Positions 2,857 to 35,100 of a stretch of DNA of 64,000 bases are shown one piece after another. The stretch is from the IMG/VR virus record IMGVR_UViG_3300044612_001159, positions 51,666 through 115,665 of that record; one strand, given 5' to 3'. The notes beneath the pieces are model-generated. The model did not search any database. It had not been told where the DNA came from and worked only from the letters and a program-made list of their open reading frames with translations. How positions within the stretch are numbered: the first letter of the stretch is position 1; each line of letters starts with the position of its first letter. A program made the position numbers and the translations under genes. Source of the DNA: a virus.

Positions 2857-2996
2857 TACTTATCTTTCTTGTTATACTCGCCGTACTTACCAAGAACTGC
2901 TTTAACTGTCCCGTCTTTTCTCAAACGCACTATCATGCCATCTTTAATCTGTATTGGATTAAAGGGGTGCTTTGTTTTATATTTACCAGATGACAT
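2856..2996 (-). CDS. Small basic hypothetical protein (46 aa)
   Basis: Read by hand: MSSGKYKTKHPFNPIQIKDGMIVRLRKDG...; TAATG-coupled to both neighbours. Confidence 0.7.
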   Translation of the reverse strand: MSSGKYKTKHPFNPIQIKDGMIVRLRKDGTVKAVLGKYGEYNKKDK

Positions 2997-3658
2997 TATT
3001 TTCTCTTTCTATCAAAAGCAGATCCTTCCCAAATTGTTTTCTCAACTGGAATACAATTAGGAACCATTTTGCCATTTTGTTCTTTCATACCACGCTGAAC
3101 ATATCCATCCCAACATGGTGCTTGTTTGTTTACACTAGCACAGCAATCTGATTTCATTTCTCCAGATTGACATTGAGGACATTGCTCACATGTTACATTT
3201 AATTCTTTACACATTGGACATCCACATCCTTCATATGCTTTGTCCATTCCCACATTTGACTCTAATGAAGGCATAGCCATTACTTCTGATGCTTTTGCTC
3301 CAACAAAATATTCAGTCTCTTCAAGACCGCCCTCTTCCATTTCAAATAATTGTATTAGTATGGCAGGATCTTCTGCACTTGCTTCTAGAGCATACTCTGA
3401 TCCTGGGGTTCCAAGCATACCTTCTGTCATTACATGAACAACACGACCAACATACATTTCTTCTTCATGTGGGGCCATTACCATGTCGCCCTCTTTGACC
3501 ATAGCCTTGCCTATATTGCCCTCAGAACGGTTTATAGCGTAGATCTGTGCTGCAGCCTCAGAACGAGTCTTATGGCACCCCATAACCTCTCCTGTGTCCT
3601 TTAAAGCAGGGTATCCAGAACAACCATTAGACCCCTTAGAACCTATACGATACGGCAT
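2996..3658 (-). CDS. Hypothetical Cys-rich phage protein
   Basis: CGCPMC..CEQCPQC..CC cluster and PCWDGY..GMK...VPNC motif; leaderless promoter upstream. Confidence 0.75.
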   Translation of the reverse strand: MPYRIGSKGSNGCSGYPALKDTGEVMGCHKTRSEAAAQIYAINRSEGNIGKAMVKEGDMVMAPHEEEMYVGRVVHVMTEGMLGTPGSEYALEASAEDPAILIQLFEMEEGGLEETEYFVGAKASEVMAMPSLESNVGMDKAYEGCGCPMCKELNVTCEQCPQCQSGEMKSDCCASVNKQAPCWDGYVQRGMKEQNGKMVPNCIPVEKTIWEGSAFDRKRK

Positions 3659-3680
3659 AAAACTATTATAGCATAGAGTA

Positions 3681-3708
3681 TGAGCAGTTTATACACATGC
3701 TCAGGTGT
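3681..3708 (-). ncRNA. 28-nt H-type pseudoknot motif, copy 1
   Basis: ACAC-C-UGAGCA-U-GUGU-AUAAAC-UGCUCA; covaries with the copy at 9974-10001. Confidence 0.65.
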
Positions 3709-3724
3709 TTGATAGTATTATTAC

Positions 3725-4144
3725 TTACTTGATTTTGATTGTTTTTGGTTTCTTTTCTTCGGGGATGTTTCTCTCCACAAAGACGCTAAGAATACCGTCT
3801 GCCATTTCAGCACGATCTACCTCCATATACTCTCCAAGAGCAAAGGTGCGTGTGAACTTTCTGGTTGCGATACCCTTATGCAGGACATTACTTGCGTCCT
3901 CTTCGGCTTTCTCACCCTTTACAATAAGACTTCCATTATCCACAGAAACCTCTACCTCATCTTTGCTGAAGCCAGCAATAGCCAGAGATAGTTTGTAAGT
4001 ATCTTCATCAATCTTCACCACATCATATGGTGGATACGATTGACGAGTTGCCTCACGATGGATATTATAGAAGCGGTCCAACTCTCTGTTGAAACCAATA
4101 AAAAATGGATCCTTAAAAAGATCCAATGACCATGAACTTACCAT
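3725..4144 (-). CDS. Small heat shock protein Hsp20 (IbpA-like)
   Basis: YPPYDV, LAIAGF, LHKGIATRKFTRTF, DGIL; start moved to ATG 4144 (SD AGGAGGA). Confidence 0.95.
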   Translation of the reverse strand: MVSSWSLDLFKDPFFIGFNRELDRFYNIHREATRQSYPPYDVVKIDEDTYKLSLAIAGFSKDEVEVSVDNGSLIVKGEKAEEDASNVLHKGIATRKFTRTFALGEYMEVDRAEMADGILSVFVERNIPEEKKPKTIKIK

Positions 4145-4197
4145 TATTTCCTCCTTGTTAAGCGAGTTCAATTTGTACCCCCCTTTGGGCAGGCACA
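4145..4197 (-). promoter_or_regulatory. ROSE-like RNA thermometer in hsp20 5'UTR
   Basis: CUCGCUU pairs with SD AAGGAG with a bulged G; upstream hairpin UGUGCCU/GGGUACA. Confidence 0.6.
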
Positions 4198-4202
4198 ACT
4201 AA

Positions 4203-9856: not shown

Positions 9857-9897
9857 AATATTCCTCCTTGTTGATATGACAATATAATTATATCACG

Positions 9898-9970
9898 CTG
9901 CCCCACCTGGTCTCGATCCAGGGACATCCGAATTAACAGTTCGGCACTCTACCATCTGAGTTATAGGGCA
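9898..9970 (-). tRNA. tRNA-Asn (GUU)
   Basis: TGCCCTA/TGGGGCA acceptor, CCGAA-CTGTTAA-TTCGG anticodon arm, G73; atypical T-loop ATCGAGA. Confidence 0.9.
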
Positions 9971-9973
9971 ATG

Positions 9974-10001
9974 TGGGCAGTTTTTAGTCATACCCAGGAC
10001 T
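9974..10001 (-). ncRNA. 28-nt H-type pseudoknot motif, copy 2
   Basis: AGUC-C-UGGGUA-U-GACU-AAAAAC-UGCCCA. Confidence 0.65.
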
Positions 10002-10006
10002 ATTAA

Positions 10007-10879
10007 TTAATTACGAATATATGATGTATTGCCAATTAAAATCTTTGACAAAGATGAAAAATACTCTGTAAAAGTTTTAAATGTATTACGGCTTACATAT
10101 GAGGCAGCAGACACTGCAGTTGCTACTGAACTTCCAGCAGTTGATGTTGGAGATCCATTATATTTAGTAATTTTAACCGAACCAGGAGCAACCATATCAA
10201 GACCAGGGCCTGTATTTGTTGCTGCCTCTAGTTGAGTTGCGCTACCAAGTGCACCAACACCTGTCACTCCACTAACGCATGACGGAAACCCAACAACGTC
10301 TCGTCGTCGGTCATTTCCTACCGCAACAAATACTGGAACATTGCTTGCGGTTAAAGATGACACAGCATTGATGGTAACTGTATCGTTTGTACATAGTGCA
10401 AGGTTTCCTGCACTTACTGAAGACTGGCTAACTGAAAGAGCATCAATACTGTACTTAGCAGCATTCTTTGATACCCAGTCAAATGCTAATGCCAAGGCTC
10501 TTGCATCTCCCCTTGAATTTCCAAGTGATGTAACATCATTAAATCTAATAAAAACAATCTTTAGATTTGGATTAACAGTTAGGGCAGACTTTACCATTGC
10601 ATCGCCGTGGTATGTAGCATTGTTGATTGATGCTGGCCATGGGGCAGACGCTGCACCCTTGCCCTCCATAAACAACTCTCCATTAGGGCAAGACATGTTT
10701 TGAGAAGCAATCTTTGACTTTACAGTTGTAAAGCAAACCTCATGAATAATTTGAGGGAAGTTATTAGAATTGATAGCAGTATCAATAATTGCCAAAACTC
10801 TTTCATCGTTTGCTTGTACTGGCTGTACTGTGCTAATTACGAATAGTGCTGATAGTATTGCTAGTAGTGCCTTTTTCAT
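10007..10879 (-). CDS. Secreted subtilisin-like (S8) serine protease
   Basis: Signal peptide; AIIDT (Asp), YHG (His), AVGND (oxyanion Asn), LDMVAPG, AGSSVATA (Ser). Confidence 0.8.
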   Translation of the reverse strand: MKKALLAILSALFVISTVQPVQANDERVLAIIDTAINSNNFPQIIHEVCFTTVKSKIASQNMSCPNGELFMEGKGAASAPWPASINNATYHGDAMVKSALTVNPNLKIVFIRFNDVTSLGNSRGDARALALAFDWVSKNAAKYSIDALSVSQSSVSAGNLALCTNDTVTINAVSSLTASNVPVFVAVGNDRRRDVVGFPSCVSGVTGVGALGSATQLEAATNTGPGLDMVAPGSVKITKYNGSPTSTAGSSVATAVSAASYVSRNTFKTFTEYFSSLSKILIGNTSYIRN

Positions 10880-12721: not shown

Positions 12722-14350
12722 TTACCTCCTCATTCCAATTACCGCAGATACTATGTTAGAAACAAGTACTACTGGGATAATTACTTCCTGTGCTTTTTCT
12801 CTCTGATCATCTGTCATATCCATACCTAACTCAGAGAAATTAGATAGGAGTTCTGTAACATCCACATTGAACACTGCTCCAAGTGGATCTGCTAAAAATG
12901 CTTCTGTTTGTACCTCAGTAATAGCATCTGCCAATGTATATGGCATTGGGGCATCTGCGTTTTCTTCTGCTCTACCCGCAAACTCTACAAATGCCACTGC
13001 TATTTCTGGATTGTCTTTAATTGCTTCTGCAATTATTGCTATTTCTTCTGCCTTAATTCCAAGATTTTCTGCTACTGCTTCTTCCTCTGTTGTGGATAAT
13101 TCAGTTAGCATGTTTGATAATTCGGCAGCCAACTTAGCATCGTTTTGTCCAATTAGTTTATTTAACTTATTAAGTTCATCTGCTGAAATTGGATTACTAT
13201 CGTCTGTGTCATTATTATCTGGTGCTGGCACTATAGGCTCTTCCTCAACAGGTTGCTCAGGTTCAGGCTCTTGACCTTGATCTGTTTCCTCTGGCTGAGA
13301 TGTTGGCTCTTCTGAAGGCTCTGGAGTTGGATCAGTCTCTTCGCTGCCACCATCTGTGGTATCAGGGCTTGGAGAAGGAGTAGGATCTTCTGGTTCAGTT
13401 TGCTCATCATCAGGGAACCTTGGATCCTCTGGAGTAATAATCTCTGGGTCAACTTCAACATCAGGTTCAGGTAAATCTGGATCTTCTGTAGAATCAGGAC
13501 TTGGCTCTGGATCTGGTGTAGGTTCTGGTTCATTAACTTCTTCGCCATTAATAGAAGCAATAAGATTATTAAGGTCTGATATTTCTCCAGCCAACTGTGC
13601 TGCCTCTGCCACCTGCTCTTGCTGCTCTTCAGGCGTTATAGGGGCTTCTGTGGGCGTTGGAGAGGGTTCTGGGGATGGCTGCTGGGTAGGGGTAGGAGAA
13701 GGCTCTGGAATCGGCTCTGCTTGCAATGTAGGGGCAGGAGAATTAGGGGAAACCTGTGTAGCGCCCCAAGCCTCAAGTGATACTATAGATCCATCATGAA
13801 GCCTTACGCCCGTTCTAAGATTTTGGTATTCAGGACCTTGATAACTATAGGACACCGCTAAACCGCCAGTATTAGTAATAGCCACTAATATATTTACTGT
13901 ACTTGCCTGTGCCCCATAGTTACCGAATGGGACCATATTGAGGTTCATTTGAAACCCACCTTCAGAATAATATATGTCCAAACCAGATGTTCCGCTTACT
14001 CCTGGGAACCAGTCCATTGAATACAAGGAGATAGATGGTGTAGATGGATAGGTATGAAATGTACCGTCAGGTTGTCCAAATGTAATTACTGAGTTAGTTG
14101 TAGCATAAATGTTTTCATACTGTACCCCGTCAAAAGTCACGGTAGTTGCAATTGGTATTTGATAAGATATGTCGTCACCTGAGCAAGTATCCATATGATG
14201 CACTGTAGGTTCGGCATCGCCTTCATATGCTGCTGCTATGGTTTGTGATTGTATAAAGTTTACACAGGCTGCGTTAGCATTTTCTGGAATCCATAGGTTA
14301 AAGCCAAGGGCCAGTAGTGACGCTGACAATATTCTTATTAATTTTTTAAT
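12722..14350 (-). CDS. Secreted, C-terminally anchored acidic protein with Pro/Glu-rich linker; probable ATT start
   Basis: Signal peptide IKKLIRILSASLLALG..ANA, beta-rich N-domain (IYATTNSVITFG), PEPSPTP repeats, C-terminal TM. Confidence 0.75.
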   Translation of the reverse strand: MKKLIRILSASLLALGFNLWIPENANAACVNFIQSQTIAAAYEGDAEPTVHHMDTCSGDDISYQIPIATTVTFDGVQYENIYATTNSVITFGQPDGTFHTYPSTPSISLYSMDWFPGVSGTSGLDIYYSEGGFQMNLNMVPFGNYGAQASTVNILVAITNTGGLAVSYSYQGPEYQNLRTGVRLHDGSIVSLEAWGATQVSPNSPAPTLQAEPIPEPSPTPTQQPSPEPSPTPTEAPITPEEQQEQVAEAAQLAGEISDLNNLIASINGEEVNEPEPTPDPEPSPDSTEDPDLPEPDVEVDPEIITPEDPRFPDDEQTEPEDPTPSPSPDTTDGGSEETDPTPEPSEEPTSQPEETDQGQEPEPEQPVEEEPIVPAPDNNDTDDSNPISADELNKLNKLIGQNDAKLAAELSNMLTELSTTEEEAVAENLGIKAEEIAIIAEAIKDNPEIAVAFVEFAGRAEENADAPMPYTLADAITEVQTEAFLADPLGAVFNVDVTELLSNFSELGMDMTDDQREKAQEVIIPVVLVSNIVSAVIGMRR

Positions 14351-21944: not shown

Positions 21945-24900
21945 CCTCCAATGTTACGGTTCCGTCTTTAGTCTTGCCAAAATCAAACTTATAATACTTT
22001 CCTTCTTCAATATGCATATATGCTTTTGCAAATGATGTTGGAAATACTGTTATTGAGTGCAGGTCTCTTTTTGTATCTGCTAAAGTCAATGATGCCATTT
22101 TCTTGCCTGCTTTGGTAACTCTAGGCTTAAAAGAAACAACAAACATTTCATCATCTTTGTATGGCAACTGTTTATATCCTAAAAATTTAACCAGCGCATG
22201 GGACGAACTTTTTATTTCATCAGACGGTATGAAAGATACAATCCTGTTATCGTTACAAAGGACCAAATAAGAACGACCCGTCTCAATAGCGGTATTTTCA
22301 TCATCAAATATACCGACAGACCCAGTCTTATCCAAAATTTCAACTCGTGACCATCCTGTTCCCCTCTTAATAGATTTTACCATACCCATGAATATATAGG
22401 AACCCTTTTCTTCAAAATCAACAATGTCCTGAATAAAAGCGTAGTAATGAGAAGGTATAGTAATGTTAAACTCTGGAAGATTTAAATATTCATATAAGTT
22501 TTCTTTAATCTCTTGATCATTTCTAGGATTATCTGGAAATGTTGCTGCACCAATTACACGAAGTGCCTGAAGTGCACGAGAGTTTACTCCATTGCCCTTT
22601 GTGAATGTAAACTCTTCAAGTTCTTTGTAAGACTTAAAAGGTCGTGCCGATATATATCGTTCTGCAATCTTATCAGAGATAAACTTGATTGCCGAGAGTC
22701 CAAACCGAATACCCTTACCCTCAATTTTAAAATCAATATCCGAATCATTAATGTGAGGTAGTTTAATGCTAATCCCCATTCTTTTCGCTTCAATAAGATA
22801 TTCAGTTCGTGCATCTTTATCCTTTTCATTCTTTAGAAGTGCAAACATAAACTCTAGTGGATAATAATACTTTAGCCATGCTGTCCAATATGATAGCGTT
22901 GAGTACGCTACTGCATGGGACTTATTAAATGAATACCCTGCGTGAGCCTCAAAGTCATGCCATAGATCACGAGCAAGGTTTGGGCTAATAAAACGAGAAG
23001 CACCCTCTATAAACTTATCCTTAAATATGTCAAACTCTTTAGCATCTTTTTTCTTTCCAATGATCTTACGAACCTTGTCAGCCTCAGACATAGACATACC
23101 GCCAAGATGTACGCAAGCCTGCATAACCTGCTCTTGGTAAAGAATACAACCATAGGTTTCCTCTGTAAATTCTTTCACAACTTGATGAATATAGGATATA
23201 TTCTGACGACCATGTTTACGATCAACATAATCTTTTCCAATTGTATTCATTGCGCCTGGACGAACAAGAGCATTTGAAGCAGCAAGTTCTGCTAGATTTT
23301 TTACACCCATCTTAATTAGTAGGTTTGTGTATGGTGCTGCTTCACACTGGAACACGCCCTTTGTATATCCATCTGACAGCATTTGATAAACATTTTTATC
23401 ATTCATATCTATTTTAAGAAGGTCAATCTTTTTACCGTCACGCTCTTTAATTATGTTAATGGTGTCTTTTAGAACAGACAAAGTCTTTAGTCCTAATGCA
23501 TCTATTTTAATAAGGCCAACCTTTTCAGCCTCTTCCATATCAATACCGACCACTGGTATGCGATCATCAGATCCAGGAGAAGAACGAGTTTCCAACGGCG
23601 CATACCTAAAAATTGGATCCTTACTAGTAACCACACCAGCAGCATGAATACCAGTTCCCCTAATACGGCCACGAAGTTGTTCACCATATTCTTCTACCTC
23701 TGGATATTTTTCACGAAACTCTAATGTTGATTTTGATGTACAGTAATCATCCCACGAATCTACTGTCTTTAGAACCTTGTTTACATCTGACAAAGGAATG
23801 TTTAGAACTCTGGCAACGTCTCTAACAATTCCTTTACCAGTAAACTGAAGGAATGTTGCAATAGATGCTACATGTCGGTACTGTCTTACAAGATAGTCTT
23901 TAACCTCTTCACGCCTAGTGTCCTGAATATCTGTGTCAATATCTGGAAAGTCATTACGGTCTGGGTTAATAAATCGGAAGAACAATAGGTTGTGCTGAAT
24001 TGGATCTATATCTGTAATTCCAAGGGCATAGCAAACTAAGGACCCAGCAGATGACCCACGACCAGGTCCAACTAGAATCTCTTCCTTCTTTGCCCAGTTA
24101 ATCATGTTGCTAACAACCAAGAAGTACGGAGCAAACTTTTTATCCTTGATAATTTCTAACTCTTCGTTAAGCCTGTCTATATACTGCTTGCTTTCAGACA
24201 ACCCTCTTGCTGTCAAACCTTCCAAAGCAATCTTTGCAAGTTCCTTATCTGGACTCTTGTACTGAACTGGCAGCAAGTTTAAGCCTTCTTGAATTTCATA
24301 GTCTTCTACAGTGTCTGCAAGCGATAATGTGTTTGTGTATATATCTTCTCTATCAATACCCTGGGATTTCATGGCTGCCTTCATCTCTTCATAAGAAAGC
24401 AAATGAATATCAAACTTATTAAATGTTATCTCTCTATCTTTACCATAAAGCAAGTCTAGCCTGTCCATCATATTAGAACACTTTGCCGACTTAGCATAAG
24501 AAACATCTTTAGAGAGTTTGGCATGGGTATTCATAATTAGTTTAAATTCTTGAATTTCTTTTTGCCCTGGATGAGAATGGTGGCAGTCTGGAGTAACAAT
24601 AGCCTTAATGTTAAACTCATCTGCTAAATCCAAAAGGTATTTATTTATGTGGGCTTCGTTGTGTGGCATAACCTCAATATAATAATCACTGCCGAAGTTA
24701 TCTTTAAACCAACTAATATACTTCTTAGCGAGTGCAAATTCTTCTTCTTCTAAAGCCTTTACCAGCACACTGCTTGGGCATGCAGAAGAAACAATAATTC
24801 CTTCTTTATATTTTTCTAATATCTTAAAATCAAACCTAGGCTTTTTAAAGAAGCCATCAGTCCATGCTATTTCGCTTATCTTATTTAGATTTTCTAAACC

Positions 24901-32177: not shown

Positions 32178-35100
32178 TAAACCACCTCACTTAAAAATAA
32201 AGTCATTGAAGGACCGTCAGAACTTCTTGAGAATTCAATATTATAGACAACAAATCGATTATTTGGATTTGACGCCATGCTTATATCGTTCTCTTTGTAA
32301 TCTACGCTAACGATGTCTCCTAGTTGTATTGTTGGAATTGCAAATATTTGAGCCCCAATAGATCTTCTAGGCTTTGCTATTTTTTCAATTAGCCATTCCA
32401 TTAAACTGTTTGCTTCATCTTGAGACTGTATATATGTTGTATCTATAGCAAAATCTTTTTTACCGTAGGTCATTCTGCTAAGTTTAATATCCTGATAGTC
32501 TTGTTTAAATTTATATGGATTTGATATAAGTTTATCTGCAACAAACTGTGGATTAGAAACAAGACTGTTCTTGTTAAAATATTCATCAACTGTAAGATTG
32601 TTATCAGACTGTTGAGTAAATGTAATTCCCTGAATTCTCAAATAGTTTCCGCTAGTTTCATCTAATGACAAAGGTGCATCGGTTGTATTAAAAATTAAAA
32701 ACTCTGCTCCGTAGGACCCTGCTCTAAAACCAGATACTGCATAACCTTTCATTTTATTAAATGTTGGAGAAATTTTTGCACTAAGTGCTGGATATGCTTT
32801 ATCGTATTTAAAATTAAATGCTGCCAACTCTCTCATAATGCTTCCAAACTCTTCAAAGTAGATATCATATTTTGGTGGCTCAGAAGAACTAATACCAGTT
32901 AAATAAGTATTTTGTATTAAACCACTAATTGAATATTTTCTAAACGACTCGTTAGCATCAATCTCCGTATCTCCAAAAACAGAATTAACAGGGGCACCAA
33001 GTTTAAATGATGTGTTCTGTGCATAGTTGTTACATAGTGCATACACATTTTCAAACATTGCTCTTGATGATCCTCTAGTAAATAATGCCATACTTGAGTA
33101 TGCTGGAAGTGGGTCTATATCGTCTACTGTCTTTATAACTACTCCATTTAAATATAAATAAAATCTTCTAGTTGTTCCTATATCCTCATATTCTACTGCT
33201 AAGTCATATACCGTCGGATTTTCTTCAGCAAAACTTCTTGATTGGCCTGTAAACTTTCCGTCATCTACTGTGATTTGTCCCAAACCATCCCAAAGTTTAA
33301 CGGGAACTGCAGATCCATTATTAGACTTTATTTTATAAAAAAACACATTGCTAACGCCTTGTTTTTCTGTGTCTGATAGTTTGCCCAATCCTAGCGCTGC
33401 TATCTCAAAATAGTAGCCAACGTTTGTAATAGGATTAAGCATTATGGCGATGCCTGCAGAACCCCCAGAGATATTAATATTTTTATCTGGCGTAGTTCCA
33501 TTCACTACAAAATATGTTGAAGATCCGTTGGAGGTTTGTCCTCTATCTTGATTATTTTCTATCTTGCCAACAATTCTCATTCTTGTTCCAAAATGTTTAT
33601 ATTTTTTATTTTCTAAAGATTTGTGAACATAAGAAATAAAGTTTCTTGGTTTTTCCTTTGTTGTAAAATTTGGACCAGTTAAGGATAAAGCAGAAGACTG
33701 AATTGATCCAGGCTGTTGCTGGGTTTGTGTTGTTATTTCTCCAGTAAGTGTTGTAGAGAAAAAGTTTTTTATAAGACCAGTTCTTGTAGAAGTTCTTCCT
33801 ATGGCATCAGCAGATACGCCTGTGTCTGTTGTTTTGCCTGCAGAAGAAACTGTTGTTGCAGGAATTGGGGTTTTGTTATCAAAAAGATATTCAGAGGACA
33901 TATAGCATCCTTTAACATTGTCGTCAGACTTCCAATAATCAGATATACCAGCAGTGTGCTCTACCACATTTGTTCCAAATTGACCACGACCATGCTTTAC
34001 TACTGGACCATTTTGAAGTTTTATTACGCCACCCTGCTCAAAATACTTTGGCTCTGAGTAAATTCTTACTAGACCTGTTGGATATATTTTTCCATTAAAA
34101 GGCAGTTTAGCAAAATAGTACTGATAATCTTCAATAGAAGTTATCCAGACATTTCCAAATCCAGTAACATTGTGCTGAACGGCATCGTACTTTATAATTT
34201 CTCCTTGAGAATAAAAGTACCCATTATATCTAGCAATCCAAAATACTGCTTCGCCTAAACTAAAAGTATTATTTATAACAACATTATTTTTTACAACAGG
34301 AACATCTGCAGAAAGGTTTGCATTTAGCGGAATTGCTGTAAGAAGATAAGAAGATTGGGTTCCAATCTCATTATTCAAAGACTTTGTATTCTCAGTTCCA
34401 GAAACCTCCCAGAGTAGCGCTGGCTTGTATGTGTAATATCTTTCTTCATCTAAAAGGCTGGCCTGTTTGATAGACCCTATTGATCTTTGAATATGTCTTG
34501 GAGTATAGTTAATTACTCCATCATTATATACAATGTTAGACTGAGCAGAAACAGAAATAATGTTTGCAAGTTTAGACTTTTCCAAAGTTTTATTTGTAAT
34601 TTCTCTATCTTCAAATAAATCATTTGTTCCTTTAAGTGCAAAGGTTGTCGGCCTTTGCTCTTTGGTTGGCATTATGTAGTTTTTGCTCATCATAACAAAA
34701 TTATTATATTCATCAAAAAACATTGCCGTTTGTGTAGAAACTGCTATGTCTTGAAGAATTTCTGCAACGCTTCTGTCTGGAGGAATGAAAAAATATGGAA
34801 TTATTACTTCTTTTTCATTGGCTACTCTTTTAAAAGTATAGTTAGAAAATCCAATATAGTCAAGCAAAAGAGAAACTGCGGAACTAACAGAAACTTCAGT
34901 CATTAATATTTGTGGCGCTGTCATTGATTCTAAATACCAATATAGATCTCTTAGTGATATTGAAACTCTTTTGCTCACAACATCAGACTTTGGAAATGAG
35001 TCAGAGTATAGTGTTTTTATTGGAACCCAATAATCCCAACCATTGACATCAACTATAACTTCATAAAACTTAAACTGTATATGTCTATCTGTATATTTAT

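Follow-up and report, generated by a model that had tools for sequence, protein, structure and literature searches.

Does a 28-nt sequence that occurs twice in a viral contig, each time a few nucleotides after a stop codon, represent a conserved RNA structure and, if so, what could such a structure do for the phage that carries it? We addressed this question in a 64,000-nt stretch of DNA (the window; bases 51666-115665 of a 115,665-bp IMG/VR virus record), in which a preliminary description made from the sequence alone had reported an H-type pseudoknot with compensatory changes in both stems and had read it as a conserved 3′-UTR RNA element, such as an exonuclease block, a processing or termination signal, or a protein-binding site. 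We found that both sites are members of a family of minimal H-type RNA pseudoknots that is large and uncatalogued and occurs in hundreds of unrelated phages and other mobile elements.

Results

Both copies were confirmed, by reading the sequence, at the positions first given for them and on the minus strand, which is the sense strand. Copy 1 (3681..3708, −) consists, from 5′ to 3′, of the first strand of stem 1 (S1; ACAC, 3705-3708), a single-nucleotide loop (L1; C, 3704), the first strand of stem 2 (S2; UGAGCA, 3698-3703), a junction U (3697), the second strand of S1 (GUGU, 3693-3696), loop 3 (L3; AUAAAC, 3687-3692) and the second strand of S2 (UGCUCA, 3681-3686). Copy 2 (9974..10001, −) is likewise 28 nt long, with S1 formed by AGUC (9998-10001) and GACU (9986-9989), L1 by C (9997), S2 by UGGGUA (9991-9996) and UGCCCA (9974-9979), a junction U at 9990, and L3 by AAAAAC (9980-9985). 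The two copies are identical at 20 of 28 positions, and seven of the eight differences fall at paired positions with the pairing kept: two double changes in S1 and, in S2, one double change and the replacement of a C-G by a U-G pair. A covariance model (R1) scored copy 1 at 44.0 bits (E 1e-9) and copy 2 at 37.8 bits (E 4e-8); the next-best score in the window is 11 bits, so that the window has exactly two copies. The S2 variant of copy 2 (UGGGUA/UGCCCA) was found again in other contigs.

A pattern built from the two copies and allowed up to three mismatches is expected to match 0.85 times, and 24 of 100 shuffles reach two matches. Two sites alone are therefore not significant in 64 kb, and the case rests on further copies and on unbiased covariation. 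A chance origin of the two window copies was ruled out by five more copies in the same genome, by the covariance-model scores and by the wider family.

Copy 1 starts 16 nt past the TAA (3725-3727) of an hsp20 gene (3725..4198, −; Pfam PF00011 HSP20, E 7.7e-20; PHROG 432, E 1.4e-39) and is followed by UACUCUAUGC. The gene on its 3′ side (2996..3658, −; from the ORF list) has its ATG (3658) 22 nt after the element, and no Shine-Dalgarno sequence precedes that ATG. Between copy 1 and this ATG is an extended -10-like sequence, TGcTATAAT (3665-3673, −), at 10 nt from the former and 6 nt from the latter. Judged from these motifs, the gene at 2996..3658 may be leaderless, in which case the DNA of the knot would overlap its -35 region. 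Copy 2 starts 5 nt past the TAA (10007-10009) of a 290-aa gene (10007..10879, −), which has weak protease-like similarity (phrog_3677, E 2.1e-10) and had no match in a Pfam search. It is followed by CAU and then by a tRNA-Asn (GUU) (9897..9970, −; ARAGORN; Rfam tRNA, 58.8 bits) that begins 3 nt beyond the end of the element. The preliminary description had placed both copies shortly after a stop codon, and the distances of 16 and 5 nt agree with this. The leftward gene block that holds both knots ends at 2605 (−), about 150 nt from a tRNA-Thr(UGU) (2386-2458, +) that closes the rightward gene block; this is the convergent junction of two transcription arms.

The phage genome carries seven copies in all, five of them outside the window. 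Four of these are canonical and on the plus strand, at genome positions 32271, 33916 (with an L3 of 8 nt), 34437 and 35774. The seventh copy (34545-34588, +) has S1 ACAC/GUGU, L1 C, S2 strands UGAGUA and UGCUCC and L3 CUAAAC, and its 1-nt junction is replaced by a 16-nt segment with a small hairpin (GGAGGAAAUCC). S1 is paired in all seven copies although its sequence varies in nearly every copy: ACAC/GUGU occurs twice (copy 1 and the seventh copy), as does AGUC/GACU (copy 2 and the copy at 33916), and the remaining three have AUUC/GAAU, AGAC/GUCU and UUUC/GAAA. The covariance model gave the six canonical copies 30-44 bits and the insertion variant 12.9 bits. This variant lies 80 nt after the canonical copy at 34437, which places two knots within one intergenic gap.

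Promoter-like sequences lie behind several copies in this genome. TGTCAG-N10-TAGACT (genome ~33952-33974) begins about 8 nt beyond the knot at 33916; it resembles early promoters of the PafBC/RecA-NDp type and suggests an order of gene, stop, knot, putative promoter and gene at this copy. The knot at 32271 is followed after 12 nt by the palindrome GTGATCTTTATCACA (genome ~32311-32325), and similar GTGAYC...GATCACA palindromes are found after knots in two other loci (L008 and L062); it is possible that the palindrome is an operator common to this phage group. The source genome is probably that of an actinobacterial lake phage, given that its best DUF932 matches are in Streptomyces phages, that it encodes a mycobacteriophage GP88 domain and that it is present in lake metagenomes. 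The closest cultured relatives by protein are the Streptomyces BE-type phages (52% identity in DUF932). The motif is entirely absent from phage Squillium.

The element is found far beyond this genome. An exact-pattern scan with CCTGAGCA-N-G-NNN-N{1,6}-AAACTGCTC matched at least 119 IMG/VR contigs. The same scan matched at least 119 contigs from at least 10 phyla in a one-genome-per-species set of bacterial contigs, a 596-Gb set in which by our own estimate about 100 chance matches are expected. Among the bacterial matches listed, S1 was paired at all four positions in 69 of 109, versus 5% by chance. The labels of contigs with a fully paired S1 include Saccharibacteria, Lachnospiraceae, Clostridium, Lacticaseibacillus, Eggerthellaceae, Anaerolineae, Calothrix, Polynucleobacter, Coxiellaceae, Hyphomicrobiales, Chitinophaga, Melioribacter, Spirochaetota, Omnitrophica, Atribacterota, Aminicenantes and others. 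A relaxed regular expression returned nothing but reverse complements of known copies.

Named carriers were recovered by a 32-nt BLAST query with copy 1: Roseophage SIO1, Lentibacter phages ICBM1-3, Celeribacter phage P12053L, Clostridium tetani phages, the phiEcoM-GJ1/ST32/PM1 group, crAss-like phages cr7_1 and cr124_1, Lactobacillus phage phig1e and the Arthrobacter Amigo cluster. The covariance model confirmed the copies in SIO1 (22199-22226; 40.7 bits; 9 nt past the ribonucleotide reductase stop) and phiEcoM-GJ1 (NC_010106.1, 14212-14239; 30.6 bits), and the other named carriers are BLAST matches. In phiEcoM-GJ1 a hypothetical CDS, gp30 (14095-14337), is annotated over the knot, which lies 217 nt upstream of a tRNA-Arg; this CDS may be a mis-annotation. 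Further covarying copies, whose absence from relatives would have counted against the preliminary description, were found in abundance.

These copies define an architecture with a 4-bp S1 of free sequence, an L1 of a single C, an S2 of 5-6 bp that is usually UGAGCA/UGCUCA, a 1-nt junction that tolerates insertions, and an L3 of the form NNAAAC. The claim that both stems covary was borne out in each of the sets that we compiled. In instances selected by S2 and the loops only, S1 was fully paired (4/4) in 122 of 148 and paired at three of four positions in the other 26, the loose pair being the outer one, and 56 distinct S1 sequences were represented. Selection by S1, the loops and the outer letters of S2 gave 158 instances, and in every one the unconstrained inner 4 bp of S2 were paired; about 20 of them had compensatory variants (UGGACA/UGUCCA, UAAGCA/UGCUUA, UGGGUA/UACCCA, UAAAUA/UAUUUC, UAGACA/UGUCUA and UGAACA/UGUUCA). 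Across 128 distinct 28-mers, 95.5% of cells pair, versus 78.6 ± 0.7% in shuffles (none of 500 reached the observed value) and 23-36% when the partners are slid; the covariation score was 0.448 versus 0.129. In none of these 128 sequences is any of the pairs 2-15, 3-14, 7-27, 8-26, 9-25 and 10-24 broken, and double changes occur at each of them. With pairs 1-16 and 6-28 being loose, the core is 3+5 bp. The element thus comprises two crossing helices, each with compensatory changes, as an H-type pseudoknot does.

L1 spans the 5-6-bp S2 with 1 nt, and L3 spans the 4-bp S1 with 5-10 nt (mode 6). Judged from established pseudoknot stereochemistry, these loop lengths are compatible with groove crossing, and the NMR structure of the T2 gene 32 pseudoknot reportedly shows that a 1-nt L1 over a 6-7-bp S2 is physically feasible. 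The junction nucleotide is U in 75 instances, A in 60, C in 12 and G in 1, and it takes insertions of 4-30 nt, including hairpins, which is what one would expect if the junction nucleotide of a coaxially stacked knot is extruded. C5, A11, A19-A21, C22/U23 and most of S2 are near-invariant across at least 10 phyla. The search patterns fixed C4, C5, U6, A11, G13, A19-C22 and U23, and the apparent invariance of these positions partly reflects that choice of instances. Position 28 is variable (A 107, U 22, C 19, G 10), and in one variant the C4-G13 pair is flipped to G-C. We also observed a six-instance subclass (loci L009, L033, L050 and L062) with ...AAAA-GGCUC(A) replacing ...AAAC-UGCUC(A); the change of C22-U23 to A22-G23 turns the A11-U23 pair into A-G and may report a tertiary contact at the helix junction.

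The U-G pair of copy 2 had been taken to fix the strand. U-G pairs occur on the sense strand only, ten more of them at 10-24, and co-orientation with the upstream gene (same strand in 123 instances, opposite in 8) gives the same strand. Nested folding yields the S2 hairpin alone, at -8.3 and -5.7 kcal/mol with unremarkable z-scores; selection conserves the knot and not a plain hairpin. A reversed-sequence control of a generic knot scan was uninformative because pairing survives reversal.

The position shortly after a stop codon proved to be general. The distance from stop to element is 5 nt in 14 cases, 6 in 12, 7 in 5, 8 in 12, 9 in 8, 10 in 6 and 11 in 4, with 0-4 nt in only 2 cases, so that the distribution has its floor at 5 nt and its mode at 5-9 nt. 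The same 5-nt floor is seen in bacterial contigs. Distances to the next gene are broad, from 10 to more than 200 nt. Twelve instances lie at convergent gene ends. In the family scan the element is outside coding sequence, the phiEcoM-GJ1 copy in gp30 being annotated otherwise. A start codon follows within 30 nt in 20 cases and a tRNA begins 3-13 nt downstream in 19 of 158, and among the same 158 no tRNA was found directly upstream. Fourteen of the 19 downstream tRNAs are tRNA-Asp, largely from a single syntenic lineage (DUF932-knot-tRNA-Asp) to which this genome belongs.

Of 157 instances, 23 (15%) have a U-tract after the element. CCA follows in 14 of 158, versus about 2% expected; UUU and CUU are equally common, and 91% of instances lack CCA. 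On the 5′ side the flank is rich in A; on the 3′ side G is scarce (2-12%) at positions +1 to +9, and C or U is found at +1 and +2. Among the upstream stops, UAA is commoner and UGA makes up 10.7%, versus 29.5% among the other ORFs of these loci, a crude background that includes spurious ORFs and contigs of mixed GC, GC-rich ones among them (p 3e-7). In viral contigs the upstream genes include DUF932 (19/100), HSP20, SSB-like and ribonucleotide reductase (RNR) genes and many small unknowns, and in bacterial contigs they include ArdA, DUF3768, DUF2958 and DUF7249. Mobile elements typically carry genes of these kinds as early or anti-defence cargo. In phages and other mobile elements alike, the knots thus concentrate behind early genes and genes of DNA metabolism and anti-defence. 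When the 2,998 ORFs of 238 loci were clustered all against all, no family was present in more than 25 loci; as no neighbouring protein family is common to the loci, a locally encoded partner is unlikely.

Relatives of the window region are present in four RNA libraries as assembled contigs. One RNA-library contig bridges copy 2, running through the tRNA, the element and the upstream gene. A drop in depth from hsp20 to the downstream gene was set aside as evidence because these are assembled contigs, whose depth cannot rank genes. Metatranscriptome contigs of relatives match the hsp20 gene and diverge at window positions 3716-3719, the sense strand continuing ...UAGUCGGGGGAGACAGCGACUU. In these expressed relatives the place of copy 1 is taken by another hairpin or, possibly, by a divergent knot.

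Comparison with Rfam, which the preliminary description had named as a check, was carried out with Rfam 15: only tRNAs were found in the window and in five loci (E ≤ 5), and a 71-nt search at E ≤ 10 returned only a spurious SNORD50 match of 11.6 bits. A literature search (full text, core sequence with pseudoknot, phage intergenic pseudoknots) found no description of the element, and large ncRNA-discovery papers were without mention of it. The knot family is therefore new with respect to Rfam and the searchable literature.

Several familiar readings were ruled out. A -1 frameshift stimulator is contradicted by the absence of in-frame slippery heptamers at the ORF end (0/79) and by the use of spacings of 5, 6, 7, 8 and 9 nt with no frame preference. 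A DNA operator with TGAGCA/TGCTCA half-sites does not account for the free covariation of S1, for U-G pairs on the sense strand only or for the gene-linked orientation. The preQ1-I riboswitch was rejected since there is no RF00522 match, the element is anchored to the stops of unrelated genes, and its junction is unconserved and expandable. As a general intrinsic terminator the element fails on the scarcity of U-tracts, on tRNAs and start codons close behind it and on the RNA contig that bridges copy 2, although a minority of family members may qualify as intrinsic terminators. The initial reading of a conserved 3′-UTR RNA element is thus upheld in fold and position, whereas termination, one of its proposed roles, is unlikely as an obligate one, with tRNAs or start codons within 3-30 nt and a U-tract in only 23/157.

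Discussion

What could such an element do? Taking its fold and placement together, we suggest that the knot probably marks or protects mRNA ends. Our favoured explanation, which we offer tentatively, is that it would be a compact structural boundary beside the terminating ribosome that caps the 3′ end of the upstream mRNA. When a stop codon occupies the A site, the following ~4-5 nt lie within the mRNA channel, so that stop+5 is the closest position for a structure that does not need to be unwound. The knot would fold once transcribed and, starting at least 5 nt past the stop at about the edge of the mRNA entry channel, would never be melted by the terminating ribosome. It could thus serve as a compact, mechanically tough and permanently folded boundary. 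A cut downstream of it would leave the knot as the 3′ end of the upstream mRNA, shielding that end against 3′-to-5′ decay; RNase P acting at a neighbouring tRNA or an endonuclease acting in the G-poor, A/U-rich spacer could make such a cut, and where a U-tract follows, termination could have the same effect. The knot would also insulate the downstream RNA, whether a tRNA or the next ribosome-binding site, from upstream translation.

Simple end protection leaves the near-invariance across phyla unaccounted for, since a stable hairpin would suffice. The near-invariant C5, A11, A19-A21, C22/U23 and most of S2 point instead to a specific partner or a specific tertiary fold. The orientation of the knot, reasoned from known frameshift pseudoknots, also speaks against an end cap: by this analogy the triplex side (S1 with the A-rich L3) would face 5′ and would resist 5′-to-3′ machines such as the ribosome, not 3′ exonucleases. 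In addition, several copies in this genome appear to be followed by promoters of their own, which makes termination or insulation as plausible as end protection. It is possible, if doubtful, that the knot is a portable, host-independent module read by a universally conserved machine (the mRNA entry/helicase site of the ribosome, or RNase P), a reading that would explain the near-invariance of L1, of the AAAC of L3 and of most of S2 across at least 10 phyla.

Two more specific readings name such a machine. The knot could signal recognition or processing by a host enzyme that is universally conserved, with RNase P or another tRNA-end enzyme cutting polycistronic early transcripts between cistrons; the stacked helix of S1 and S2 (~10-11 bp) with its 3′ single strand would then imitate the acceptor/T-arm minihelix of a tRNA, in the manner of the TYMV tRNA-like pseudoknot. 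We regard this as unlikely. A universal partner fits the near-invariance over at least 10 phyla and the lack of a common neighbouring protein, and the 19 copies 3-13 nt upstream of a tRNA, a position 28 that varies as a discriminator base does, the excess of CCA after the element (14/158 vs ~2% expected) and the G-depleted, single-stranded 3′ flank all lean towards it. However, CCA is missing in 91% of instances, with UUU and CUU as common, the stacked helix is shorter than the 12-bp acceptor/T stack, cleavage in L1, as the TYMV analogy would have it, would destroy the conserved fold, and no tRNA, tmRNA or tRNA-like Rfam model matches. The knot might otherwise be aimed at the ribosome, as a barrier at the mRNA entry site of the terminating ribosome that prevents read-through, sliding or re-initiation after the stop; neighbouring cistrons would thereby be uncoupled, and ribosomes kept off downstream tRNA or promoter-proximal RNA. 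The 5-nt floor and 5-9-nt mode equal the spacer of frameshift and read-through pseudoknots, and a 1-nt L1, an A-rich L3 and a length of 28 nt are the architecture of luteovirus-type knots, which stall ribosomes. The leaky UGA stop is depleted upstream (10.7% vs 29.5%, p 3e-7), though the background includes spurious ORFs and GC-rich contigs, and the element is kept out of coding sequence. Yet the floor is equally explained by selection against obstructing termination, a plain spacer or hairpin would insulate too, and the lack of a reading-frame preference and of slippery heptamers (0/79) means that this is not recoding. A barrier of this kind has a small chance of being the main function.

A role in transcription is more doubtful still. 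As a pseudoknot terminator, pause or anti-backtracking signal, the element would delimit short, promoter-driven early units, and this agrees with the U-tract directly after S2 in 23/157, with the 12 instances at convergent gene ends and with the promoter-like sequences that follow some knots (TGcTATAAT after copy 1, TGTCAG-N10-TAGACT 8 nt after the 33916 copy and TTGACA-N17-TATAAT in loci L038 and L034). Against it, 85% of instances have no U-tract, tRNAs 3-13 nt on and start codons within 30 nt need read-through, an RNA-library contig bridges copy 2, and conservation over phyla with very different RNA polymerase accessory factors is untypical of terminators. Very improbable, in our judgement, is that the RNA itself is active, whether by binding a universal small molecule or protein as a minimal aptamer or by cleaving itself as a tiny ribozyme that processes early transcripts. 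The invariant unpaired C5 and AAAC and the near-invariant S2 resemble ligand-binding or catalytic cores, and in its overall plan, a short P1 with an A-rich tail and a 3′ end that pairs into the loop, the knot matches the preQ1-I aptamer. The knot also occupies intergenic slots beside tRNAs, and phage ribozymes occur in intergenic slots next to tRNAs. No Rfam riboswitch or ribozyme matches, however, and the element is anchored to the upstream stop and not to a downstream expression platform; the junction nucleotide, a ligand contact in preQ1-I, is unconserved and takes insertions of 4-30 nt, and there is no consistent downstream gene family.

It is now uncommon to find a structured RNA that covaries strongly, has hundreds of members and lacks an Rfam entry; this one, moreover, measures only 28 nt. 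Should the knot define or protect mRNA ends or engage the terminating ribosome, incoming DNA would have in it a general means of expression that does not depend on the host, and synthetic operons a very small, ready-made part with which to insulate and stabilise cistrons. If it is indeed read by a universal machine, it would represent a new class of cis-acting signal by which foreign DNA sets mRNA boundaries in any host. The knot is also of value for annotation: it marks true gene ends, and one copy falls within the phiEcoM-GJ1 gp30 CDS.

Among known systems, the -1 frameshift knots of luteoviruses and enamoviruses (such as that of BWYV, 28 nt) share with the phage element a minimal H-type fold of the same size, a very short L1 with C, an extrudable junction nucleotide, an A-rich L3 ending in AAA that crosses the S1 minor groove, and a position 5-9 nt downstream of the ribosomal A-site codon. 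They differ in that the phage element has no slippery heptamer (0/79), no overlapping -1 ORF and no frame preference, follows stop codons in DNA phages and mobile elements, and has an S2 of 5-6 rather than 3 bp and an S1 of 4 rather than 5 bp. The preQ1-I aptamer (RF00522) is of similar length, at ~30 nt, and is likewise a pseudoknot: its P1 is short, its A-rich 3′ tail occupies the P1 groove, and the P1 loop pairs with its 3′ end. The phage knot, in contrast, is not found in the 5′ UTRs of queuosine genes, gave no Rfam hit at E ≤ 10 in the 71-nt search and has a P2 of 6 bp, which should make it stable without a ligand.

In placement the knot resembles E. coli REP elements and T7 RNase III sites, which also lie between cistrons of polycistronic or early transcripts, are oriented with the genes, occur in several copies per genome and have been proposed as 3′ barriers after endonucleolytic cleavage; these are long hairpins of one host lineage, whereas the 28-nt knot is conserved in phages of at least 10 phyla. 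The xrRNAs of flaviviruses and of the coremin/dianthovirus type are small pseudoknotted elements of viral 3′ UTRs and, like the phage knot, possible roadblocks, but they stop the 5′-to-3′ exonuclease Xrn1 by a ring threaded by the 5′ end, a topology that nothing in the phage knot implies, and no Rfam match links the two. The autoregulatory pseudoknot of T-even gene 32 is also an H-type knot in a phage mRNA, with a single-nucleotide L1 spanning an S2 of 6-7 bp. It sits in the 5′ leader of one gene, where it nucleates gp32 binding, whereas the knots described here are tied to the upstream stops of many unrelated genes.
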